Assembly (NCBI GenBank): GCA_001189195.1
Contig: LFCQ01000003.1
Span: forward strand, 141,645-205,644
Reading direction: 5' to 3'
Source: Parcubacteria bacterium C7867-007
Lineage (GTDB): Bacteria > Patescibacteriota > Minisyncoccia > Phycocordibacterales > Phycocordibacteraceae
DNA length: 64,000 nt
Below are positions 20,747-32,293 of this stretch, piece after piece. Below the pieces are notes generated by a model. It had not been told where the DNA came from. It saw only the letters and a list, made by a program, of their open reading frames with translations, and did not search any database. Made by a program: the position numbers and the translations under genes. How positions within the stretch are numbered: position 1 is the stretch's first letter; the number at the start of each line of letters is the position of its first letter.

Positions 20747-21970
20747 ATGACTCGTACCACTATCTCTTCCGCTGCCGGAATTATGTTCTTCACCATTGCT
20801 GCAGTGGTGTCTGTTCCAACAACCTCAGAAGCAGCAACCAGCTGCACCTTCTCTCGAGATCTCGCACTTGGTGCTGAGGGTGAAGATGTGCGCTGTCTGC
20901 AGAAATACCTGAACGATTCAGGGTTCACCATCGCAGCAACGGGCGTGGGTTCTCCAGGGTACGAGACAACTCAGATGAAAGATCTAACGGTGAAGGCTCT
21001 CACCAAGTGGCAGGAAGCAAACAGCATCTCTCCTGCAACAGGAGCATTCGGTCCAAAGTCTCGTGCTGCATTTGCTGCACTTGCTGGTGGCGTAAGCAGT
21101 CCAAAGCCAACCACCACACCGACAACGGTTGATACAGAGGCAAAAACAAAGCTTGAAACCCTCCTCCTACAATTGAAAGCACTGCAAGCAGCAACACCTC
21201 CTGTTTCCAACACCCCAAAGCCAACCACAAGCAACTCTGGAGTACAGAAGACCATTCTAGATACCCTAGAGATGATTGATGATGCAGAGGATCAGATTGA
21301 TAAGGCAGCAACAGACGCAAACCTTATAAGTGCAAAGGAAGAACTGAGTGATGCTAAAGAGGATTTGTTTGATGCTATCCGCGCATACTTTAAGGGAGAC
21401 ATGACACGTGCTGCCAAAGATGCAGAGAACGCTCTTGATAATGCGCGTGATTCCTTTGAAGATGCGGGGGGTGAATCTGAGGACGATAAGGTAGAAAGGG
21501 ATCTCGATGACGTAGAAGAACTTATTGAGCAGGTAGAGGATGCCATCGATGATGCTGACGATGATGGCAAGAATGTATCTGAAGCACGAAAGCTTATAAA
21601 GAAGGCGCAGACAGAACTTGATAAGGGGTATACAGCGTACGAAGACGAAGAGTATGAGGAAGCTGAGGACCTTGCAGACGAAGCACGCGAACTAGCAAAC
21701 GATGCGGAAGATGAGATTGGAAGTGATAACAAAGCAGACGCAAAAGCTGAGATCCGTGATGCACAAGATGCTATTGATGATGCTGAAGCAGCAGTAGAAG
21801 ATGCAGAGGATGACGATGATGATATTGGAGATGCAAAGTCATACCTAAGCAAAGCAAAGAAAGCGCTTGATAATGCTGAAAATAGCTACGATGACGAAGA
21901 GTATGACGATGCAATTGAACATGCAGAGGATGCTCAGGATTACGCGAAGGATGCAGAAGACGAACTGTAG
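20747..21970 (+). CDS. secreted protein with a peptidoglycan-binding domain, Pro/Thr linker and highly acidic repetitive C-terminal region
   Basis: Signal peptide, then a PG_binding_1-like segment (CLQKYLNDSGFTIAATGVG...ALTKWQEANS), a PT-rich linker and about 230 aa of D/E-rich imperfect repeats (DDAEDxIDKA..., EDAEDDDDDIGDAK). Confidence 0.65.
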   Translation: MTRTTISSAAGIMFFTIAAVVSVPTTSEAATSCTFSRDLALGAEGEDVRCLQKYLNDSGFTIAATGVGSPGYETTQMKDLTVKALTKWQEANSISPATGAFGPKSRAAFAALAGGVSSPKPTTTPTTVDTEAKTKLETLLLQLKALQAATPPVSNTPKPTTSNSGVQKTILDTLEMIDDAEDQIDKAATDANLISAKEELSDAKEDLFDAIRAYFKGDMTRAAKDAENALDNARDSFEDAGGESEDDKVERDLDDVEELIEQVEDAIDDADDDGKNVSEARKLIKKAQTELDKGYTAYEDEEYEEAEDLADEARELANDAEDEIGSDNKADAKAEIRDAQDAIDDAEAAVEDAEDDDDDIGDAKSYLSKAKKALDNAENSYDDEEYDDAIEHAEDAQDYAKDAEDEL

Positions 21971-21984
21971 GGTATGCTGGGCTG

Positions 21985-22194
21985 ATGCAGGAAGTCGTAC
22001 ACAATAAGGTTAGTGAATACCGCACTGCGGCCAACATAACCCAGGAAGAACTTGCTGTAGCTATTGGAGTTAGCAGACAAACAGTCATAGCTATTGAAAA
22101 AGGGAACTATGCACCCTCAGTCTTGCTAGCACTTAAAATAGCGCGATACTTTAAGAAACCCCTTGAAACAATATTCACTCTCCGCCATGCCTAA
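21985..22194 (+). CDS. XRE-family (Cro/C1-type) HTH transcriptional regulator
   Basis: 69 aa. NITQEELAVAIGVSRQTVIAIEKGNYAPSVLLALKIARYF is a canonical Cro/C1 HTH. Confidence 0.8.
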   Translation: MQEVVHNKVSEYRTAANITQEELAVAIGVSRQTVIAIEKGNYAPSVLLALKIARYFKKPLETIFTLRHA

Positions 22195-22552
22195 CGCCAT
22201 GACTCTCCAGGTACTTTCCAGTCTTGTGCTTTTTGCACTAGGCGTTGCATTCCTTAATCCCTTTCATCTGTGGATGACCACCATGACTCATATGGTCATA
22301 TTAGGGTTCCTCGTTGCTGCATTCGGGGTATTCGCCGCACTACTTCTTCGTGAGCAAGCAGGGGATGAGCGAGAAACAACACACCGTATGCTTGCAGGAC
22401 GTGGCGCATTCTTAGTGGGCGCCACTATTCTCTTGGTGGGTATTGTTTGGCAAGCCTATACAGGTTCGGTAGACACATGGCTTGTTCTCGCCTTGTGTGG
22501 CATGGTGTTAGCCAAAACCGCTATTCGCTTCTACGGAGATCGCCGGATGTAG
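22187..22552 (+). CDS. membrane protein partner of the XRE regulator (DUF2975-like arrangement)
   Basis: 4 TM helices, overlaps the XRE stop. The start is ambiguous (22163, 22187 or 22199). Confidence 0.5.
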   Translation: MPNAMTLQVLSSLVLFALGVAFLNPFHLWMTTMTHMVILGFLVAAFGVFAALLLREQAGDERETTHRMLAGRGAFLVGATILLVGIVWQAYTGSVDTWLVLALCGMVLAKTAIRFYGDRRM

Positions 22553-22631
22553 CTGGGGATAAACATGTAAAGTAGACTTTACATGCATTCATAAAGGGAT
22601 ATCATATATTCATTAGCTACTAAGCAATTTT

Positions 22632-22910
22632 ATGATGAACAAGCAAGCAATCTGGATCGTACTTATTATTATCGTTCTTGTCGGAGGTGCAGCGGCATAC
22701 GCGATGAGCGAAAAGTCCAAGATGGAAAAGATGGAGGCAGAAAAAATGATGATGGAGGGTGATGCAATGATGGCAAGCACCTCAGATGCGATGATGCAGG
22801 GAGAAGACAAAATGATGCAGGGTGATGCAATGATGAAAGCCGAAGGCACGATGATGAAAGGAGACGATGCCATGATGAAGGCAGAGGGCGGTGCGATGAT
22901 GGCTCAGTAA
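22632..22910 (+). CDS. secreted methionine-rich repeat protein (~24% Met)
   Basis: N-terminal TM/signal IWIVLIIIVLVGGAAAYA followed by tandem GDAMM(K/A)xEG-type repeats. About 22 Met in 92 aa, and the nucleotide sequence shows tandem 27-30 nt repeats. Confidence 0.6.
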   Translation: MMNKQAIWIVLIIIVLVGGAAAYAMSEKSKMEKMEAEKMMMEGDAMMASTSDAMMQGEDKMMQGDAMMKAEGTMMKGDDAMMKAEGGAMMAQ

Positions 22911-22916
22911 CACACA

Positions 22917-24659
22917 ATGACACTCCTCTTCATATCGTTCATAGCGGGGTTGCTAACGGTGCTTGCACCCTGCATTCTGCCGCTATTGCCGGTAGTGGTG
23001 GGGAGTTCAGCCGCAGGGCGCAGCCGCCTCACTCCCTACGTGGTAGTGGGGTCGCTTGCGGTATCAGTGATCCTGTTTACCTACCTCCTAAAGGTATCGA
23101 CCGCATTCATTACGATCCCACCCTATGTGTGGACGATCATTTCTGGTGGTGTACTGATCTTCTTTGGTCTAACGCTCGTATTTCCCGCACTGTGGGAAAG
23201 AATTCCTGGAGTTGCAAAACTTTCTAGCGAAGGCAACAAGCTGGCAGGGAAAGGGTACCAGAAAAAGAGCTTTGCCGGTGACGTACTCATTGGAGCTGCA
23301 CTTGGTCCTGTGTTCTCAAGTTGTTCACCAACGTACTTTGTGATCCTTGCATCGGTACTCCCTGCAAGTTTCGCACTGGGTACTCTGTATTTGCTCGCGT
23401 ACGTGTCAGGTCTTTCAATCTCACTCCTTGCCATCGCGCTTCTTGGTCAGCGGTTTGCAGATAAACTTTCTGGAATTGCTGATCCTAAGTCTCGTGTAAA
23501 ACGTACAATCGGTGTCCTCTTCGTTATATTAGGCCTCCTTATCGTCACAGGTATCGAGAAGAAAATCGAAGCAGGCATTATAACAAGTGGTTTCTTTGAC
23601 ATTACGAAAGTTGAGCAGTTCCTCTTGAAAGCATCAGATGGTATGGGTATGGAAAACAAGGGTACCGCAATCGGTATGCTCACCCAGGGTGAGAAAGCAA
23701 TGCGTTATCAGGAGGTTCCTGAACTAGTGTCTCCGGACACATACCTAAACACAGGTGGTCAATCTATTAACCTCGCACAATACAAGGGTAACAGTGTGGT
23801 ACTTGTCGACTTCTGGACATATAGCTGTATTAACTGCCAACGTACAACTCCATACCTCACTCAGTGGCATGGAAAATATAAAGATAAGGGTCTCGTAATT
23901 ATCGGTGTACACACTCCAGAATTTGCCTTCGAGAAAGATAAGACAAACGTGGAGAAGGCTCTTAAGGAGTTCGGTATCGAATACCCGGTTATTCTTGATA
24001 ATGAATACAAGACTTGGAATGCCTTTGGTAACCGTTATTGGCCACATAAATATCTAATCGATATCGATGGATACATTGTGTATGACCACATAGGGGAAGG
24101 GGAGTATGACGTAACTGAAAAGGCGATTCAGGCAGCACTTGCAGAACGAGCAGCACGTCTTGGAGAATCTGTAGACAGTATTGACTCAGGCATTGTGTCT
24201 GTAGACGGAGTCGAGGGTTCACGTGCACAGAGTCCAGAAACGTATTTTGGTAGCGACCGCAATCAATACCTCAGCAATGGTATGTCGCGAAGACAGGGGA
24301 TTCAGACCCTTACCTTCCCAACCACCAATACACTCAATGCGCTATTCCTGCAGGGGGTATGGAATTTCTCTCCTGAGTATGCGGTCCCGGCATCTGGTGC
24401 CCGTGTCCGCTACACATACAATGCACGCGACATATACTTTGTTGCGAGCGCATCATCACCCGTAACAATCAAGGTACTGCGGGATGGTGAACCCGTAGGA
24501 ACCTTCGCAGGAAGTGATGTCGATCCAAAGACTTCAACCGTCACGGTTAACCGAGATGGTCTCTATAAGCTCATCCATGATGAGTCAGTAGGTGTTCACA
24601 CTATTGAACTAATCATTAATGGTGACGGTCTAAAAGCATTCACGTTCACGTTTGGATAA
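22917..24659 (+). CDS. CcdA/DsbD-like membrane thiol-disulfide transporter fused to a TlpA/ResA-like thioredoxin domain and a C-terminal beta domain
   Basis: CcdA conserved cysteines (LAPCILPLLP and GPVFSSCSPTY), about 6 TM helices, and the thioredoxin WCxxC motif in DFWTYSCINCQRT. Confidence 0.78.
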   Translation: MTLLFISFIAGLLTVLAPCILPLLPVVVGSSAAGRSRLTPYVVVGSLAVSVILFTYLLKVSTAFITIPPYVWTIISGGVLIFFGLTLVFPALWERIPGVAKLSSEGNKLAGKGYQKKSFAGDVLIGAALGPVFSSCSPTYFVILASVLPASFALGTLYLLAYVSGLSISLLAIALLGQRFADKLSGIADPKSRVKRTIGVLFVILGLLIVTGIEKKIEAGIITSGFFDITKVEQFLLKASDGMGMENKGTAIGMLTQGEKAMRYQEVPELVSPDTYLNTGGQSINLAQYKGNSVVLVDFWTYSCINCQRTTPYLTQWHGKYKDKGLVIIGVHTPEFAFEKDKTNVEKALKEFGIEYPVILDNEYKTWNAFGNRYWPHKYLIDIDGYIVYDHIGEGEYDVTEKAIQAALAERAARLGESVDSIDSGIVSVDGVEGSRAQSPETYFGSDRNQYLSNGMSRRQGIQTLTFPTTNTLNALFLQGVWNFSPEYAVPASGARVRYTYNARDIYFVASASSPVTIKVLRDGEPVGTFAGSDVDPKTSTVTVNRDGLYKLIHDESVGVHTIELIINGDGLKAFTFTFG

Positions 24660-24727: not shown

Positions 24728-24961
24728 ATGAAGAATACTAAACGAAGGGAGGGTCGTACGTGGACGATGCTCAAAAGATTGGTCTCACCAAAGACCCCTC
24801 TTGGCGGCGCACTGATCGGTGGTGCCTGTGTGGTTCTATTATTCATATCGTATTCACTTGTCAGTGGACAAAGTCCTGAGGAATCTCGTACTAAGTTCGT
24901 AGAGAAGTATCAGTCTATTAACCAGACTGCATATCGTGCCTCTGCAAAGAATTCCCGTTAA
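24728..24961 (+). CDS. small membrane-anchored hypothetical protein
   Basis: Weak RBS. One TM helix (LGGALIGGACVVLLFISYSLV). Immediately upstream of the pilin gene. Confidence 0.3.
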   Translation: MKNTKRREGRTWTMLKRLVSPKTPLGGALIGGACVVLLFISYSLVSGQSPEESRTKFVEKYQSINQTAYRASAKNSR

Positions 24962-24965
24962 TACT

Positions 24966-25691
24966 ATGAAAAAAACTCTACGAAGTAATCGCGGCTTTAC
25001 ACTCATTGAACTCTTGGTGGTGATTTCGATCATTTCACTGGTAGCAAGCCTTACCTTTGCAAACATAACTAGCGCTCGTACAAAGGCACTTGATACTCGC
25101 AAGAAGGCAGACCTCACCACCATTCGTACGGCGATTCAGTCATACACCTTGGATAAGGGTCGTGCTCCAAACAACTATGATTGCACGGGTGGTACCTGTG
25201 TGGTCAACAATGCACGCACAACCATTGCTATTGAAGATGCTCCTGGTGCAGCAGCAACCGAAAGCGGCCAAGCATACAATGCAGCAATGCAGGAGCTTGT
25301 CACCAACAAGTATCTTCCCGCAGTACCACGATCCCCGGGTGGTGCAGGCTACGCCTATTACAACTATGGTTCAGGCACTTCTGCAGGAGCCGTAATTGCA
25401 ACATCACTTGATGCTGAGGTTGCTTCTGAAAAAGGTGCAACGGGTAGCTGTCGCCCATTCCCTGGAGCTGGTGGTAGCGGTTCAGGTGGTGAGATAGGGG
25501 GAGGTGGTGGAGGAGGGGGAGGTTTTGAACTAGACCCCCTTGATCCAGGTGAACTGGGTGGAGACATCTGCTTGTACTTTGATGGTGATGTTCTGTATGA
25601 AGGACCCTGTCCTCTTGGCTTTGACTCAGATGCACCAAACATCTGCAGCGCATCACTCTCGAAAGACTTTTGTCTCTGCAGCACGTACTAA
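24966..25691 (+). CDS. type IV pilin/pseudopilin (prepilin-type N-terminal cleavage/methylation domain)
   Basis: MKKTLRSNRG|FTLIELLVVISIISLVA class III signal. Has a Gly run (GGGGGGGGG) and a Cys-rich C-terminus. Confidence 0.8.
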   Translation: MKKTLRSNRGFTLIELLVVISIISLVASLTFANITSARTKALDTRKKADLTTIRTAIQSYTLDKGRAPNNYDCTGGTCVVNNARTTIAIEDAPGAAATESGQAYNAAMQELVTNKYLPAVPRSPGGAGYAYYNYGSGTSAGAVIATSLDAEVASEKGATGSCRPFPGAGGSGSGGEIGGGGGGGGGFELDPLDPGELGGDICLYFDGDVLYEGPCPLGFDSDAPNICSASLSKDFCLCSTY

Positions 25692-25791: not shown

Positions 25792-26028
25792 ATGGGCTCA
25801 TGGAAAAATGCACACACCAGCGCACTCCGGGCTAGGGATGCTCTTCAAGGACCGCACCAGGTCGCACACCATGCACCAGGACGTATTACAGACTTCGCCA
25901 TCGGTGATTTGGTTCGCGTTGTAAAGACTGGTGTCACCGCACGAGTGACAGGCAAGACATCCTGGGGTGACCATTATCTCGAGGGACTTCCTAACTTCTA
26001 CTCGGGCTCTCAGCTAGAGAAGGCCTGA
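25792..26028 (+). CDS. small hypothetical protein (78 aa)
   Basis: AAGGAG 7 nt upstream of ATG. Moderately GC-rich. Contains a GDLVRVVKTGVTARVTGKT segment. An 11-bp-stem terminator follows at 26043-26069. Confidence 0.45.
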   Translation: MGSWKNAHTSALRARDALQGPHQVAHHAPGRITDFAIGDLVRVVKTGVTARVTGKTSWGDHYLEGLPNFYSGSQLEKA

Positions 26029-26173
26029 GAAGATGACCAGAATCCCTGGTATGGGCGCCTTTGCTCAACAAAGGCGCCCTCTATCGTCACTTTTGACTTT
26101 CTATAAAAAATCATTATTATAAGTTTCAGTACCAGAGTTCCTATCAACAACATAGACCGAAAGGACATGCTTG

Positions 26174-27622
26174 ATGCACCGCATCATTCCCGATTGGACC
26201 AGATGGGCGGTACCCATACTAGGGATACTTTCCATTCTGGTCTTTGTGCCCTCGCTGATCTACTTCAGCCGGGCAAACGATCACCAGGACTACAGCAAGG
26301 TTCCTGCACTCACCCCAGCACAATACACTGCTGAGGTGAAGGCAATCGTTGCCGCTACATACGCGGCTCCGACTGAGGACCCTGCGGACTACTACCGTAC
26401 GGCGATTCGCGCTCAGAACTTCAACGTTATGGAGGAGCGCTTCCGTCGTGATCACCCTGCCGAATGGCAGAGACTCGCGCACAAGCGTTCCGCCAGCATG
26501 ACGTTCAACGTCGGGCTCTTGATGAATGAGTACGAACAGAAGTTCGGCCATTCAACAATGGTGGATACTGCGGACCGTATGCGTCCGTGGATGAACGAGC
26601 AGATCGGATCGATTTCAGCACCCCCGGACCAAGTCCGGCTGGACAAGGCAGGCTGGTGGTTCGTTCGTGGATACATCATGTGTGTTCTGCTCAGCGTGCT
26701 GTTCTACATGGCGCGTCTCAAGCAGGAAGGCATGCTGATCTGGCCCGAGATGACCACAGGCTTCCTGTTCTTGGCCGCGTTCACTGGCCTTGGCGTCGTC
26801 ATGATCTACCCTCGGAACATCGATCCAATCGTGCAGATCAAGCGGGCCTGGCGATTCATCGCTGGTCTCGCTGCTGGTTCCATCTCGCTTGCGGGAATGG
26901 CTGGCATGGCTAACGCGCGAGAACGTCTGGAAAGCAGCGCGGCCGAGAACGCCAAGGTGTTTATCCTTCCGTTCGTTCCGATGCCTGAGTTCTCGTTCTC
27001 AAGTGGTGTCATGTCGTCAAAGGTGACTGGCAACGGCACCCGCGTCAACGATGGCATCACGTACACCGGTGGTGTGCACGCAGCCTTCGCTGGTGGCGTG
27101 GACTTGGATCTGTCCGGCACCAGGCAAGCTACGGGCAACGCGTCGGATGAGATCGACTACACCATCTCGAAGACGATGAAAGGAAAGGCAGGGTCGGTTA
27201 CGGCCGGCTTCGCCTATTTCGATATCGTCCCGGTGGGCAGAAGCAAGGGAGGCGACATGATCTCCCCCTTCATCAGTCTCGAGCACAAGCTCGGGTACGG
27301 CCTGACGGCCTTCGCGAAGGCGGACGGATACTTCCTAACGCACGGACCTCCAACCAACAATGGCTTCGACGTGATTGCCGGACTCAAGGGAAGCACGCAA
27401 GTGCGCTCTCTGAGGTTCGATCACTCCGTCTCGGCCGTTCTGAGCGACGGTCCGTTCGGACAGTCTGCAGGCACGACCCTGCGCTTCGACGAGGCAATCT
27501 CAGTGCCCGTCACAAAGCGTCTGCGGGCTTCCACCAATTTCAAGCTCTTCGTTCCTATCCAAGGATCGAAAGGTCGAGAAATGGACGTCTCTGGCGGCCT
27601 CGGTCTGAACTACGCGTTCTAA
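26174..27622 (+). CDS. GC-rich (~58%) hypothetical membrane protein with a beta-rich C-terminal domain ending in an OMP-like aromatic residue
   Basis: AAAGGA RBS. N-terminal TM plus three central TM helices. The C-terminal ~230 aa show alternating hydrophobic beta pattern and end in GLGLNYAF. GC3-rich codons. Confidence 0.55.
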   Translation: MHRIIPDWTRWAVPILGILSILVFVPSLIYFSRANDHQDYSKVPALTPAQYTAEVKAIVAATYAAPTEDPADYYRTAIRAQNFNVMEERFRRDHPAEWQRLAHKRSASMTFNVGLLMNEYEQKFGHSTMVDTADRMRPWMNEQIGSISAPPDQVRLDKAGWWFVRGYIMCVLLSVLFYMARLKQEGMLIWPEMTTGFLFLAAFTGLGVVMIYPRNIDPIVQIKRAWRFIAGLAAGSISLAGMAGMANARERLESSAAENAKVFILPFVPMPEFSFSSGVMSSKVTGNGTRVNDGITYTGGVHAAFAGGVDLDLSGTRQATGNASDEIDYTISKTMKGKAGSVTAGFAYFDIVPVGRSKGGDMISPFISLEHKLGYGLTAFAKADGYFLTHGPPTNNGFDVIAGLKGSTQVRSLRFDHSVSAVLSDGPFGQSAGTTLRFDEAISVPVTKRLRASTNFKLFVPIQGSKGREMDVSGGLGLNYAF

Positions 27623-27645
27623 CCGATCAACAGCTTCGACTACTG

Positions 27646-27681
27646 ATCTACTTGGGCCCGGCAACAAAAGCCGGGCCCTTT
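27646..27681 (+). terminator. rho-independent terminator
   Basis: gggcccggc-aacaaaa-gccgggccc followed by ttttcattta. Confidence 0.7.
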
Positions 27682-27894
27682 TCATTTATATACACACAAG
27701 AAAAGAGGGAAGTGAGCTCCCCTATCCGAGATAAAATGTGGCCCACTTTATAAATAGGATTGGGAGGGAAGCCGATCTCGGATAGACACACTGGCATCCG
27801 AGATTAATAAACAATAGCAATGTCCTGGTCAGGAGGGTCTGCAGGGAGGTACTCAGTACTTCGTAGATGATAAAGAAGGGACAATGATCAAGTC

Positions 27895-28113
27895 ATGAGC
27901 TCAATCCAGCCGCATTTGTATATGTGGGACGTGAAAGATATATTGTACGACGTACTAGTATCAAAGGCCCCTGCTGATTCAATAAAGAAATTTACTCCAA
28001 CCAACTTCTGTACTTTGTGCCCTTCTCTTCCCTGTTACGGGTGTGCGGTCATCGGAGATGAACTTGCTCACGTCTATGCAAAATATTTCTGTATCACTAA
28101 TTTCACAAAATGA
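27895..28113 (+). CDS. possible small Cys-rich ORF in a long AT-rich intergenic region (low confidence)
   Basis: 72-aa ORF containing CTLCPSLPCYGC. Weak RBS, so it may be non-coding. Confidence 0.2.
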   Translation: MSSIQPHLYMWDVKDILYDVLVSKAPADSIKKFTPTNFCTLCPSLPCYGCAVIGDELAHVYAKYFCITNFTK

Positions 28114-29618: not shown

Positions 29619-30020
29619 CTAGAGCCCCTTACAGTTCTTGGCTGCTCGATATCCTGCCGCTTCTGCCTCAGCCCGTGATGCAAAGGTTACAAGTTTTTCA
29701 GGAGTGATACGCTTTGCTGCTGAACACGTTGGGAGGTAGTAGACCTCACCTGTTTTAGACGCAACCACAATCCCGTCAACAGGAGCAGCTGGTTTAGGCG
29801 CGATAGCTGCTGCAGCGGCTGCAGCCTGAGTGGGTATTCCAGGGACAGAGCTAGTAGTGGTCGCTGGACCTATTCCCCGCTGCTCTGGAGTGAGGTTTTC
29901 GATCCAAAGCTGATCCTGCTGTGCCCCATTTTCCCGTTCGATCAGTATTCCTAAACCTATACCACTGAGAATGGCTAAGATGAGAGCCCCAGCCCAAAAA
30001 GCATCCTTTGGGATCCTCAT
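29619..30020 (-). CDS. membrane-anchored protein with an Ada-like Cys4 metal-binding C-terminal domain
   Basis: Start at MRIPKDAFWAGALILAILSGIGLGIL with GGGGAG RBS. The C-terminal segment KTGEVYYLPTCSAAKRITPEKLVTFASRAEAEAAGYRAAKNC resembles the Ada N-terminal zinc-binding domain pattern. Confidence 0.45.
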   Translation of the reverse strand: MRIPKDAFWAGALILAILSGIGLGILIERENGAQQDQLWIENLTPEQRGIGPATTTSSVPGIPTQAAAAAAAIAPKPAAPVDGIVVASKTGEVYYLPTCSAAKRITPEKLVTFASRAEAEAAGYRAAKNCKGL

Positions 30021-30115
30021 AGCGAGCTCCCCTACCCTACTGGCCAGGGAACGGCCTGAACCCTTGTCTGGTGCCTGAGGTTCTGCTATAGTCATGAGAC
30101 TAAAGAATAGCATCT

Positions 30116-30397
30116 ATGGCACATACAAAGGCTGGAGGATCAACAAAGAACGGACGCGACTCAAACCCTAAATTCCTCGGGGTGAAGCTCGCTGCAGGCC
30201 AGGAGGCACGTCCAGGCATGGTTATCGTACGCCAGCGCGGTACCAAGGTTATGGCAGGTCAGAACGTGAAGGTCGGAAAAGACCACACACTTTACTCTAT
30301 GATTTCGGGTATCGTCTCTTTCCGCGACAAGCGTAAGACCAATTTTGATGGTCGTGTGGTACGCCGTAAGGTGGTAGACGTCCTCGCTTCCGCATAA
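30116..30397 (+). CDS. rpmA: 50S ribosomal protein L27
   Basis: [24 protein letters not shown]...IVRQRGTK...GKDHTLY is the canonical L27 sequence. Confidence 0.92.
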
Positions 30398-30421
30398 GGA
30401 AAACCTGGAGTTTTAGTCAAA

Positions 30422-30465
30422 AAGACCCCTGTCTCAATACGAGACAGGGGTCTTGACTCTTTGTC
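30422..30465 (+). terminator. terminator hairpin after rpmA
   Basis: 14-bp stem aagacccctgtctc/gagacaggggtctt with loop aatac, and a weak T tract. Confidence 0.6.
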
Positions 30466-30545
30466 AAGAATGTGATAATCTCCTGCCAGAACCCGGAATG
30501 TGCGAATTCCGTCAGTGGTTCTTTGCAAACCAAAATAGGTGTCTA

Positions 30546-31754
30546 ATGCAAAGTGTCCGAAACTGGTGGACGCTAGCTTTCAGCGTCTTCACCCTCATCC
30601 TGATGCTAAGCCTTCCCGGCTTGGCAGAAGCCAAAGATCTCGGTCCAAACGGCCTCAGGGCCGCCTGCACCACCGACCTGCTCAAGCACGTCGGCATGAA
30701 TAACGAGGAGGCCAGACGCCTTCCCGTTGGATTCAAGGTGAGCTACATGAACCGGGAGTTCAAGCTCACCAAGAGTCCGCCGAAGTCCCTCTGGGGCGTC
30801 TGTGAGATCCTCGTCAAAGACGGGGTCTACACCAACGCGAACGTCTTGCATAGCACTGCACCGGCGAAGCCTCCGATTCCGGAAGCGAAGCCTGTGCCTG
30901 CTCCCAAGCCGCCCGTGGCCGCAACGCCGCCGGCACCTGAAGCTGCTCCTGTGGCGCCTTCTCCGCCGAAAGCCGAAACGCCCGTCGCTGAGCCGCCCAA
31001 AGCAGCAAAAGCGCCGGAACCGACGGCTGACACGCCGCCTGTATACGGATCGCCCACCATCGTCGACAAGATGTGGTTCGCGACCCGTGACTTCTTCGGT
31101 GGACTGAACGATTGGCGGAAGCAACATCCCGTCATCGCATCGTCCATCGGAATACTGATCATTCTGATTCTGATCGGTCTCTTCTTCTTCATAAAATGGC
31201 GGGGCGAAGGTTCGGCTGAAACTGATGAGGAAGATGAAGATGAGGTGGAGCAGACTCACGATGAGAACGCTCCTGACTACGTCGACTACGAAACCATACT
31301 CCCGATTGCCGCAGCTGAAGAAGCTGCACTCGAACAACCGCCGATCCCGCACTACATGGTGCTCTCGGACGACGAGTTCGAGAGACAAGCCGTGGCTGCA
31401 GGTTTCGGTCCCAAGGCATCCGAAACAACCCAGAAGCGCTATCGCGCAGGGCTCGCTGTGATCGGTTTCCGTCCGGACAAGGAGGAAGCCCAACGACGAG
31501 GAAAGCTCGTCGACTCGCGCAGCGTGGAAGAGGAGTTCGATTTCCAGGACGCTAACGACAATGACGAAGTCACCACCGAAGCTCCTTCGATCGAACCCTT
31601 GCCTGATCTACCCCCTCTCACCGATCAAGAGCGGGCGGCGATCGGCGAAGACCTTGCTGCTGCCAGAATGATCGTCAACGAACATAAGGCCGCAACTCGC
31701 GGTACCGGTGTTCCGGAACCGTTTTCCGACAAGCTGGCCGGCAAGCCCATCTGA
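30546..31754 (+). CDS. GC-rich (~60%) single-pass membrane protein with a Pro/Ala-rich linker and an acidic C-terminal tail
   Basis: Start at MQSVRNWWTLAFSVFTLILMLSLPGLAEA (signal peptide). A PAPKPP/PEA-rich linker, TM helix VIASSIGILIILILIGLFFFIKW, then a D/E-rich tail. Confidence 0.55.
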   Translation: MQSVRNWWTLAFSVFTLILMLSLPGLAEAKDLGPNGLRAACTTDLLKHVGMNNEEARRLPVGFKVSYMNREFKLTKSPPKSLWGVCEILVKDGVYTNANVLHSTAPAKPPIPEAKPVPAPKPPVAATPPAPEAAPVAPSPPKAETPVAEPPKAAKAPEPTADTPPVYGSPTIVDKMWFATRDFFGGLNDWRKQHPVIASSIGILIILILIGLFFFIKWRGEGSAETDEEDEDEVEQTHDENAPDYVDYETILPIAAAEEAALEQPPIPHYMVLSDDEFERQAVAAGFGPKASETTQKRYRAGLAVIGFRPDKEEAQRRGKLVDSRSVEEEFDFQDANDNDEVTTEAPSIEPLPDLPPLTDQERAAIGEDLAAARMIVNEHKAATRGTGVPEPFSDKLAGKPI

Positions 31755-31816
31755 GCCCTAGGCTCACTCGCAGACACCTATTTCGCAGCATAGAGCTGCA
31801 CTCGCACACAAAGAAG

Positions 31817-31852
31817 GCGACGCTCCCCCGTGGGACCGTCGCCTTTTCTTAT
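31817..31852. terminator. bidirectional terminator hairpin between convergent genes
   Basis: ggcgacg-(14 nt)-cgtcgcc followed by ttttctta on plus. A T tract is also present on the minus side. Confidence 0.6.
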
Positions 31853-31867
31853 ACCCTATGAGGAATA

Positions 31868-32293
31868 TTACTCAGCCTCAATTGAGATGGTGATGGAACC
31901 AAAGTTCTCACCGTATGCAACAGGGATATCAAATGATCCAAGTTCCTTGATAGGCTTCTCGAGCTTAATTGCTTCGAGGGGAAGCTTTGCCTCTTCCGCG
32001 ATCTCTTTTGCATCAACGGCATCATATAGGTGACCCTGTTCATTTGCCTTCTTTAGGATAGATACACGAGTCTCAGCGAGTGCTGAAAGGCGCTCTTCGA
32101 TAAGCTTTGCTTCAACAGAGCGCTTCTCATCAGACTGCTGTTTAACACCTTCAGCGCGCTTGATAGCTGCAGGGGTGGCAAGAACGGCAAGACCGCGTGG
32201 AATAAGCATGTTTAGACCATGTCCATCAGACACATCTAGCACGCTGCCTGCACGGCCCATATCACGAACATCTTTGAGTAGTACGACTTTCAT
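31868..32293 (-). CDS. rplI: 50S ribosomal protein L9
   Basis: MKVVLLKDVRDMGRAGSVLDVSDGHGLNMLIPRGLA is the L9 N-domain signature. Start taken at MKVVLL. Confidence 0.85.
   Translation of the reverse strand: MKVVLLKDVRDMGRAGSVLDVSDGHGLNMLIPRGLAVLATPAAIKRAEGVKQQSDEKRSVEAKLIEERLSALAETRVSILKKANEQGHLYDAVDAKEIAEEAKLPLEAIKLEKPIKELGSFDIPVAYGENFGSITISIEAE

Follow-up and report, generated by a model that had tools for sequence, protein, structure and literature searches.

Gene Content of the Locus

In a 64,000-nucleotide (nt) stretch of contig LFCQ01000003.1 from Parcubacteria bacterium C7867-007 (positions 141,645 to 205,644; hereafter the window, whose own coordinates are used throughout), four open reading frames (ORFs) follow one another on the + strand. 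They encode an XRE-type regulator, a small membrane protein, a methionine (Met)-rich protein and a DipZ-like protein, all of them as described in an earlier note on this DNA. That note regarded the four genes as a candidate envelope redox or metal module, and the same four genes do recur together in relatives, where they are surrounded by different flanking genes. Two points go beyond the earlier description: the last gene is identified as encoding a DipZ protein, and the Met-rich ORF is recognised by sequence comparison as the tether of a partner thioredoxin which is absent from the C7867-007 lineage. The features of the locus are the following.

21985-22194, + strand: CylR2-like single-domain XRE helix-turn-helix protein, predicted repressor (69 amino acids, aa; Pfam HTH_3, E 1.8e-15)
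22187-22552, + strand: four-helix membrane protein, partner of the XRE protein (121 aa; 8-nt overlap between its start and the XRE stop)
22565-22584, unstranded: candidate operator, a 20-bp palindrome ATGTAAAGT-AG-ACTTTACAT, directly upstream of the Met-rich gene
22578-22605, + strand: sigma-70-like promoter of the Met-rich/dipZ operon, TTTACA-16 nt-TATCAT (10/12 positions matched)
22632-22910, + strand: Met-rich ORF (92 aa, 22 Met, 24%)
22632-22703, + strand: predicted signal peptide or membrane anchor of the Met-rich protein, MMNKQAIWIVLIIIVLVGGAAAYA, kept in orthologues and in thioredoxin-fused partners
22704-22907, + strand: Met-rich acidic low-complexity region, predicted to be extracytoplasmic (68 aa, 29% Met)
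22917-24659, + strand: DipZ-like ORF (580 aa)
22917-23561, + strand: CcdA/DsbD-type membrane electron-transport domain (Pfam DsbD_2, E 1.3e-6, and DsbD_TM)
23709-24146, + strand: thioredoxin-like domain (Redoxin/TlpA-ResA-like), predicted to be extracytoplasmic (Pfam Redoxin, E 4.8e-15, and AhpC-TSA)
23826-23837, + strand: active site C304-I-N-C307 of DipZ (sequence FWTYSCINC)
24231-24659, + strand: C-terminal Thioredoxin_10 domain, reaching the stop codon (PF17991, E 6.5e-31, profile positions 1-142 of 142)

The DipZ Protein

The last gene had been read as a fusion of a CcdA-like thiol transporter with a thioredoxin carrying a WCxxC active site. Both domains were found, but the active site is CINC (preceded by Ser, SCINC) and not WCxxC. 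The NCBIfam model for ResA matches the thioredoxin-like domain with an E value of 1.5e-18, which lies below its cutoff, and the ectodomain matches the structures of DipZ from Mycobacterium tuberculosis (PDB 2HYX/5CYY) with an E value of 1e-55. Four cysteines, namely C19 (in a PC motif), C136 (in CSPTYF), C304 and C307, are invariant among 30 homologues. The 580-aa sequence is identical to an entry for C7867-007 at NCBI. Homologues of this protein number thousands, and many of them are named DipZ in NCBI ("cytochrome c biogenesis protein DipZ"). By its domains, the CcdA-thioredoxin fusion is therefore identified as a standard DipZ protein, which has the three-part architecture and the conserved cysteines in common with M. 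tuberculosis DipZ (Rv2874), and which would be expected to transfer reducing equivalents across the membrane. It differs from the mycobacterial case in its host, a Parcubacterium, and in its operon partners, which are here a CylR2-like regulator pair and a Met-rich peptide.

In the related locus L086 (1479-3290, protein P0004), the start annotated for a 603-aa DipZ lies either ahead of the operator and promoter or inside them. The true start is probably the methionine of MTLFFISF, which gives a protein of ~579 aa.

The Met-Rich Protein

The 92-aa protein, with its 22 Met residues, ends exactly 6 nt before the start of the DipZ-like ORF, as had been noted. Its N-terminal hydrophobic segment terminates in AYA, after which cleavage may take place, and the protein is predicted to be exported. 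The 68-aa mature part contains 32% charged residues (D/E/K/R), no His, Cys or aromatic residues, and 8 MM doublets spaced by about 7 residues. The tandem repeats proposed for this protein are present, although in an imperfect form: at the DNA level, Tandem Repeats Finder reported a 21-nt period in 4.4 copies with 60% matches. The Met enrichment of this ORF is far above chance, and the other ORFs of at least 40 aa in the window that reach 12% Met are all short (46-50 aa).

Conservation of this gene next to CcdA-thioredoxin homologues, one of the checks suggested by the earlier note, was found in four diverged relatives, whose DipZ proteins are 83, 77, 67 and ~58% identical to that of the window. 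They hold an ORF of 73-101 aa in the same position with a conserved anchor; Met content is 16-24% (measured for the relatives with DipZ identities of 83, 77 and 67%), and all the length differences are multiples of 3, so that the frame is preserved. The genes flanking the module vary between these loci. The ORF is also a called gene on a JGI contig (sample 3300001199). A further close relative, L086, lacks the Met-rich gene and keeps the genes for the XRE protein, the membrane partner and DipZ. These comparisons indicate that the Met-rich gene is real and conserved.

Sequence searches with the Met-rich ORF returned few matches. A word-index homologue search gave none, Pfam and NCBIfam gave only sub-threshold noise (MASE2, HemX), and phmmer against 1.84 billion representative proteins gave 7 weak matches, 6 of which are Met-rich and 1 spurious. 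They include the orthologue from locus L084 (P0121), and three others were looked up in their genome context. Two of these three lie in operons of the XRE/membrane/Met-rich/(thioredoxin or DipZ) type, and the third is a peptidoglycan-binding Met-rich protein with an operator-like site (2 mismatches) ahead of its gene. Because the matches are few and weak, the conservation of the Met-rich ORF is argued from gene position and composition. No paper that connects methionine-rich proteins to Patescibacteria came up in a literature search.

Tethered Thioredoxins in Related Loci

A counterpart of the Met-rich protein is seen in a collection of 80 DipZ loci, one genome per species. The gene directly upstream of dipZ most often encodes a membrane-anchored thioredoxin (WCPxC; Pfam Thioredoxin), and in about half of these proteins the tether between the anchor and the thioredoxin domain is a Met-rich stretch resembling DAMMKK. 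The peptide from the window aligns with the anchor and tether of these partners (tblastn, and phmmer matches on the linker), which means that the C7867-007 lineage keeps the tether without the thioredoxin. Thioredoxin-less Met-rich versions are also found in the distant lineages L041, L063, L090 and L092, and L090 holds a free Met-rich peptide beside a thioredoxin with a Met-rich tether.

Met-rich stretches are not a general habit of exported proteins in these organisms. They occur in 23 of the 86 exported-like proteins adjoining dipZ versus 5 of 162 elsewhere in the same loci (Fisher p 6e-8), and 4 of the latter 5 are in-module thioredoxins of split dipZ loci.

Other proteins with Met-rich stretches were observed in the collection. 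In L027 (3337-3903) and L036 (2569-3762), the gene directly upstream of dipZ encodes a fasciclin protein that has both an anchor at its N-terminus and a Met-rich linker; the Fasciclin family of Pfam matches L036 with an E value of 9e-75, and L027 was assigned only through its similar sequence. The dipZ gene of M. tuberculosis also adjoins fasciclin genes, mpt70/mpt83, under the control of SigK/RskA. The presence of fasciclin genes beside dipZ in both lineages raises the possibility that this link is ancient. L010 (3079-3999), L038 (3070-3987) and L058 (12-461) contain an extra domain of ~130 aa with a PAHIHxGxCP motif, between or beside Met-rich stretches. A CHRD-like domain was suspected in these longer partners and discarded, as Pfam gave the thioredoxin domain only (in L010, no family for the extra domain). 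In L092, a gene for an Fe/Mn superoxide dismutase (1827-2423) lies ~1 kb upstream of the XRE/membrane/Met-rich/DipZ module, and a MarR-like gene just downstream of it.

The Regulator Pair and Its Candidate Operator

The XRE protein can be recognised as a full-length homologue of CylR2, which represses the cytolysin genes of Enterococcus: a phmmer search against the PDB aligned its residues 7-65 with residues 4-62 of CylR2 (PDB 1UTX; E 1.1e-11). Among the DipZ loci, 41 XRE homologues were found, with 37 homologues of the membrane partner adjoining them, and the pair lies upstream of dipZ in 35 of the 79 loci with enough upstream sequence. The start of the membrane partner was placed at the ATG at 22187, rather than at the TTG at 22163, because its homologues begin with MPNA/MKNN. 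This protein gave no Pfam family above threshold (only DUF6442, DUF3796 and DUF2157 below it). Its alignment shows a DER motif in the loop that joins helix 2 to helix 3, with D60, E61, R72 and K110 invariant and R62 at least 90% conserved. CylR1, the small membrane protein with which CylR2 acts in a signalling system that uses no phosphorelay (PMC3709268), contains KKDER after its first helix, and when a 32-sequence profile of the membrane partner was compared with CylR1 by hhalign the DER motifs were aligned, with a probability of only 5.7%.

The palindrome ahead of the Met-rich gene, with ATGTAAAGTAGACTTTACAT as the proposed XRE target sequence, has the general form ATGTAAAGT-NN-ACTTTACAT, matched at one place only in the window. 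The right half supplies the -35 hexamer of the TTTACA-16-TATCAT promoter, the best promoter-like site between 20600 and 25000. The palindrome is present in 46 of 85 related loci, including all the 35 loci with the XRE and membrane pair, typically no more than ~65 bp ahead of an xre, thioredoxin, Met-rich, dipZ or msrA gene. A consensus was built from 54 sites in these loci, and a -10-like hexamer follows the right half by 17-18 nt in 42 of them. The two halves are separated by 2 nt, and a scan with a 3-nt spacer returned no site. It is this palindrome that the XRE protein may bind. The cyl promoter holds a similar half-site, TGTCAAGT; its sequence TGTCAAGTG-T-CACTTGACA, which we take to be the CylR2 binding site, has the same half-site as the candidate operator.

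The operator is asymmetric at one mirrored position: over the 54 sites the left half is almost always TGTAAAGT, and the right half is ACTTTACA or ACTTGACA in roughly equal numbers. This asymmetry fits a double constraint on the right half, as part of both a repressor site and a -35 hexamer.

The operator is not restricted to the genes of the module. It lies directly ahead of msrA, which encodes a methionine sulfoxide reductase (Msr), in L024, L026 and L049, and ahead of genes for other Met-rich proteins, a distribution that speaks for the oxidative branch of the function proposed in the earlier note. Two of these proteins (L070, 2823-3407; L093, 730-1320) carry a PG_binding_1 domain in place of the thioredoxin, and as each gene is preceded by the operator, the XRE regulon seems to include wall-attached Met-rich proteins.

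Methionine Sulfoxide Reductases and Copper Genes

The earlier note had offered two alternatives for the module, an oxidant sink depending on thiol-based repair and a copper system, and had suggested looking for MsrA/B or copper ATPase genes nearby. Motif scans of the 64-kb window detected no msrA or msrB (MsrP was not searched for), and no heavy-metal-associated motif or DKTGT P-type ATPase. In relatives, MsrA and MsrB are encoded next to dipZ: when the two genes that follow dipZ were assigned to Pfam families in 73 loci (146 genes in total), MsrA (PMSR, 13) and MsrB (SelR, 11) were the commonest families, the next being glutaredoxin (4). MsrA/B genes follow dipZ in 18 of 75 loci, and six of the MsrB or MsrAB proteins, in L017, L019, L020, L021, L058 and L068, are membrane-anchored or exported, as counted by eye given that the automatic flag over-calls such forms. 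The proposal of an oxidant sink with thiol-based repair is thus strengthened by the relatives.

The copper alternative fared differently. Copper-related families are missing from the top 25 Pfam families of the 146 downstream neighbours, and scans for heavy-metal-associated, P-type ATPase and Cu/Zn superoxide dismutase motifs gave it no support. The peptide itself has no His and no MxxM or HxxM motifs.

Comparison with Known Systems

The closest likeness for the Met-rich protein, by composition and context, is MrpX from Azospira suillum. MrpX has a signal peptide, 20% Met and 44% charged residues, is co-regulated with a methionine sulfoxide reductase, YedYZ (MsrPQ), and is controlled by SigF/NrsF, a regulator with its membrane partner (PMC4436054). 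Both are small exported proteins (the window peptide by prediction) rich in Met and charged residues, encoded in an operon under a regulator and a membrane partner. The Met content of the window peptide (24% overall, 29% in the mature part) compares with the 20% of MrpX. The differences are nevertheless clear. In place of the molybdoenzyme MsrP the partner here is the thiol-based DipZ (with MsrA/B in relatives), a predicted XRE repressor stands where MrpX has an extracytoplasmic function (ECF) sigma factor, and the motif scan found no MsrA/MsrB in the window operon. In addition, the window peptide may remain membrane-anchored, and most relatives have the Met-rich stretch in one protein with a thioredoxin.

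A pathway from CcdA through a surface thioredoxin to MsrAB is established in the streptococci S. pneumoniae and S. gordonii (PMC3914529, PMC7034828). The CcdA-Etrx-MsrAB2 system has in common with the window a CcdA-type transporter and an extracytoplasmic thioredoxin, and related Patescibacteria hold thioredoxin-DipZ-MsrA/MsrB clusters. Unlike the streptococcal arrangement, CcdA and thioredoxin are fused in DipZ and Msr is missing from the window operon. That system has no described counterpart of the CylR2-like regulator or of the Met-rich tether or peptide.

With CylR2/CylR1 of Enterococcus faecalis, the regulatory pair shares a single-domain XRE protein of 66-70 aa beside a small polytopic membrane protein with DER after a transmembrane helix, and a palindrome with half-site TGT(A/C)AAGT at the target promoter. 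In contrast to the cyl system, the gene order is reversed, with xre first in the window, the membrane partner has four helices instead of the three of CylR1, the 8-mer half-sites are separated by a spacer 1 bp different in length, and the genes under its predicted control are concerned with envelope redox and Met repair, not with a lantibiotic toxin. Finally, the window peptide is unlike the metal-binding proteins of the SilE/PcoE, CusF and CopC type in lacking MxM, MxxM and HxxM motifs, His, and linked copper or silver genes (by motif scan of the window and among the top 25 Pfam families of the 146 neighbours).

Proposed Function and Alternative Explanations

The interpretation favoured here, to which about an even chance of being correct is given, is that the locus is a repressor-controlled envelope redox operon in which the Met-rich peptide acts as an MrpX-like sacrificial oxidant sink and not as a copper binder. 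The module is most likely part of a Patescibacteria-wide regulon for defence against Met oxidation. Each component comes from a known family; what is new is the combination of a Met-rich tether or peptide with DipZ and with a CylR2/CylR1-like regulator and its operator.

According to this model, a dimer of the XRE protein would repress the Met-rich/dipZ promoter, and the membrane protein with the DER motif would relay an oxidative cue from the envelope and lift the repression, as has been proposed for CylR1/CylR2. DipZ would take electrons from thioredoxin in the cytoplasm and deliver them on the outer side of the membrane. There, the displayed or secreted Met-rich acidic peptide would scavenge hypochlorous acid (HOCl), chloramines and H2O2 as methionine sulfoxide and so spare the catalytic thiols and the remaining proteins of the surface, a role like that of MrpX in Proteobacteria. 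The MsrA/MsrB that relatives encode within this operon would receive electrons from DipZ or thioredoxin. Since the C7867-007 operon holds neither a thioredoxin partner nor an Msr, its peptide would be recycled by an Msr encoded elsewhere, or consumed and replaced. Both the sink role and the repression by the XRE protein are proposed on the basis of sequence and gene context.

Several observations weigh against the sink model. To the absence of msrA and msrB from the window must be added that the C7867-007 operon lacks a second thioredoxin, that most of the Msr proteins adjoining dipZ in relatives look cytoplasmic, and that Msr genes are found in only about a quarter of the dipZ loci. The co-occurrence statistics may partly reflect shared ancestry within Paceibacteria rather than independent selection, the match of the membrane partner to CylR1 is weak and leaves their homology unproven, and the Met richness could meet another need of a tether which spans the cell wall.

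Three other explanations have been weighed, each of them rated well below the sink model. That the ORF is a remnant, left behind when the catalytic domain of the partner thioredoxin gene was lost and serving at most as an inert spacer or plain wall-spanning tether with no chemistry of its own, is considered doubtful. It would account for the fact that most loci carry the same anchor and Met-rich stretch merely as the linker of a WCPxC thioredoxin, for the loss of the small gene in L086, where the other three genes are retained, and for the faster evolution of the Met-rich region (67% identity between the window and C7867-008, assembly GCA_001189215.1, versus 81-84% for neighbouring genes). However, the gene is intact in four genomes in which DipZ has diverged to 67% identity, with frame-preserving indels only and 16-24% Met, and as Met has a single codon, its richness would fade fast and would be unlikely to last without selection. 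The thioredoxin-less versions of the distant lineages L041, L063, L090 and L092, the last but one with a free peptide alongside a Met-rich-tethered thioredoxin, and the Met-rich stretches of operator-preceded peptidoglycan-binding proteins and of fasciclin proteins directly upstream of dipZ also argue against a remnant, as does the absence of Met richness from the tethers that other exported proteins of these loci carry.

A role as a metal ligand is judged unlikely. Binding of Cu(I)/Ag(I) by Met-rich stretches is established (CusF, PcoC/CopC, SilE/PcoE, Ctr1), and a surface peptide of this kind could bind these metals by thioether clusters and buffer them or pass them on, with DipZ keeping neighbouring thiols reduced under copper stress. 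The spacing of the MM doublets could line up the Met side chains along a single face of an induced helix, and copper stress has been tied to periplasmic Met oxidation in E. coli (PMC9302797). Against this role stand the lack of His and Cys in the peptide, its MM doublets in place of MxM, MxxM or HxxM, the negative motif scans of the window, and the downstream census, in which Msr dominates. Moreover, the P-type ATPases in four related loci have N-termini that are, as judged by eye, not of the copper type. It is very unlikely, in turn, that the peptide is a redox signal whose sulfoxide form is sensed by the DER-motif membrane protein, releasing the XRE protein, so that Met oxidation would act as a "fuse" with positive feedback. 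The idea draws on the pairing of a CylR2-homologous regulator with a small membrane protein, and on the cyl system, in which the signal (CylLS'') is a small secreted peptide whose gene belongs to the regulated operon (PMC3709268); the first regulated gene here likewise encodes a small peptide, predicted to be exported. Nevertheless, many loci have the XRE/membrane pair and the operator without any Met-rich segment: 11 of the 35 loci have no upstream thioredoxin, several thioredoxin partners lack Met-rich linkers, and L086 has no such peptide altogether.

Surroundings of the Locus

The genes flanking the module in the window encode DNA repair, LOG, RNase T and pilin proteins, none of them redox-related. 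Directly upstream of xre lies a gene (20747-21970) for an exported protein of 407 aa, in which a peptidoglycan-binding domain is combined with a long repetitive region that is extremely acidic (D/E/A/K) and matches DUF4398. This gene stops 14 nt ahead of the xre start, and because the gap is so short, xre may share a transcript with it; no copy of the operator was found upstream of xre in the window. Downstream of dipZ, a gene at 24936-25691 encodes a type IV pilin-like protein (N_methyl motif) with a Gly run and a Cys-rich C-terminus, in synteny in the closest relative only. Two stretches of the window, 26001-28000 and 30001-32000, have a G+C content of 54-55.5%, versus ~47-49% elsewhere, and may be foreign DNA. 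They hold a 483-aa ORF (26171-27622) and a 433-aa ORF (30453-31754), both without a Pfam match.

Implications

If the sink model is true, the idea of sacrificial Met that is enzymatically recycled, as put forward for MrpX, would extend from the molybdoenzyme systems of Proteobacteria to a thiol-based DipZ system in a very distant lineage, and it would follow that such a sink can be fused to a redox enzyme as its tether. The genes preceded by the operator would also represent the first non-toxin regulon for regulators of the CylR2/CylR1 type. Patescibacteria have tiny genomes in which few stress defences can be recognised, and a conserved regulon uniting the regulator, its operator, DipZ, tethered thioredoxin, Msr and Met-rich peptides would rank among their main envelope defences against oxidants.

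A broader version, to which a slim chance is given, is that Patescibacteria possess a dedicated Met-oxidation regulon built on a phosphorelay-free pair of the CylR1/CylR2 type, in which Met-rich peptides and tethers serve as a renewable antioxidant "paint", and the free peptide possibly as a signal read by the membrane partner. If this were true, it would amount to sensing based on methionine sulfoxide and would offer a tractable model for signalling from CylR1 to CylR2.

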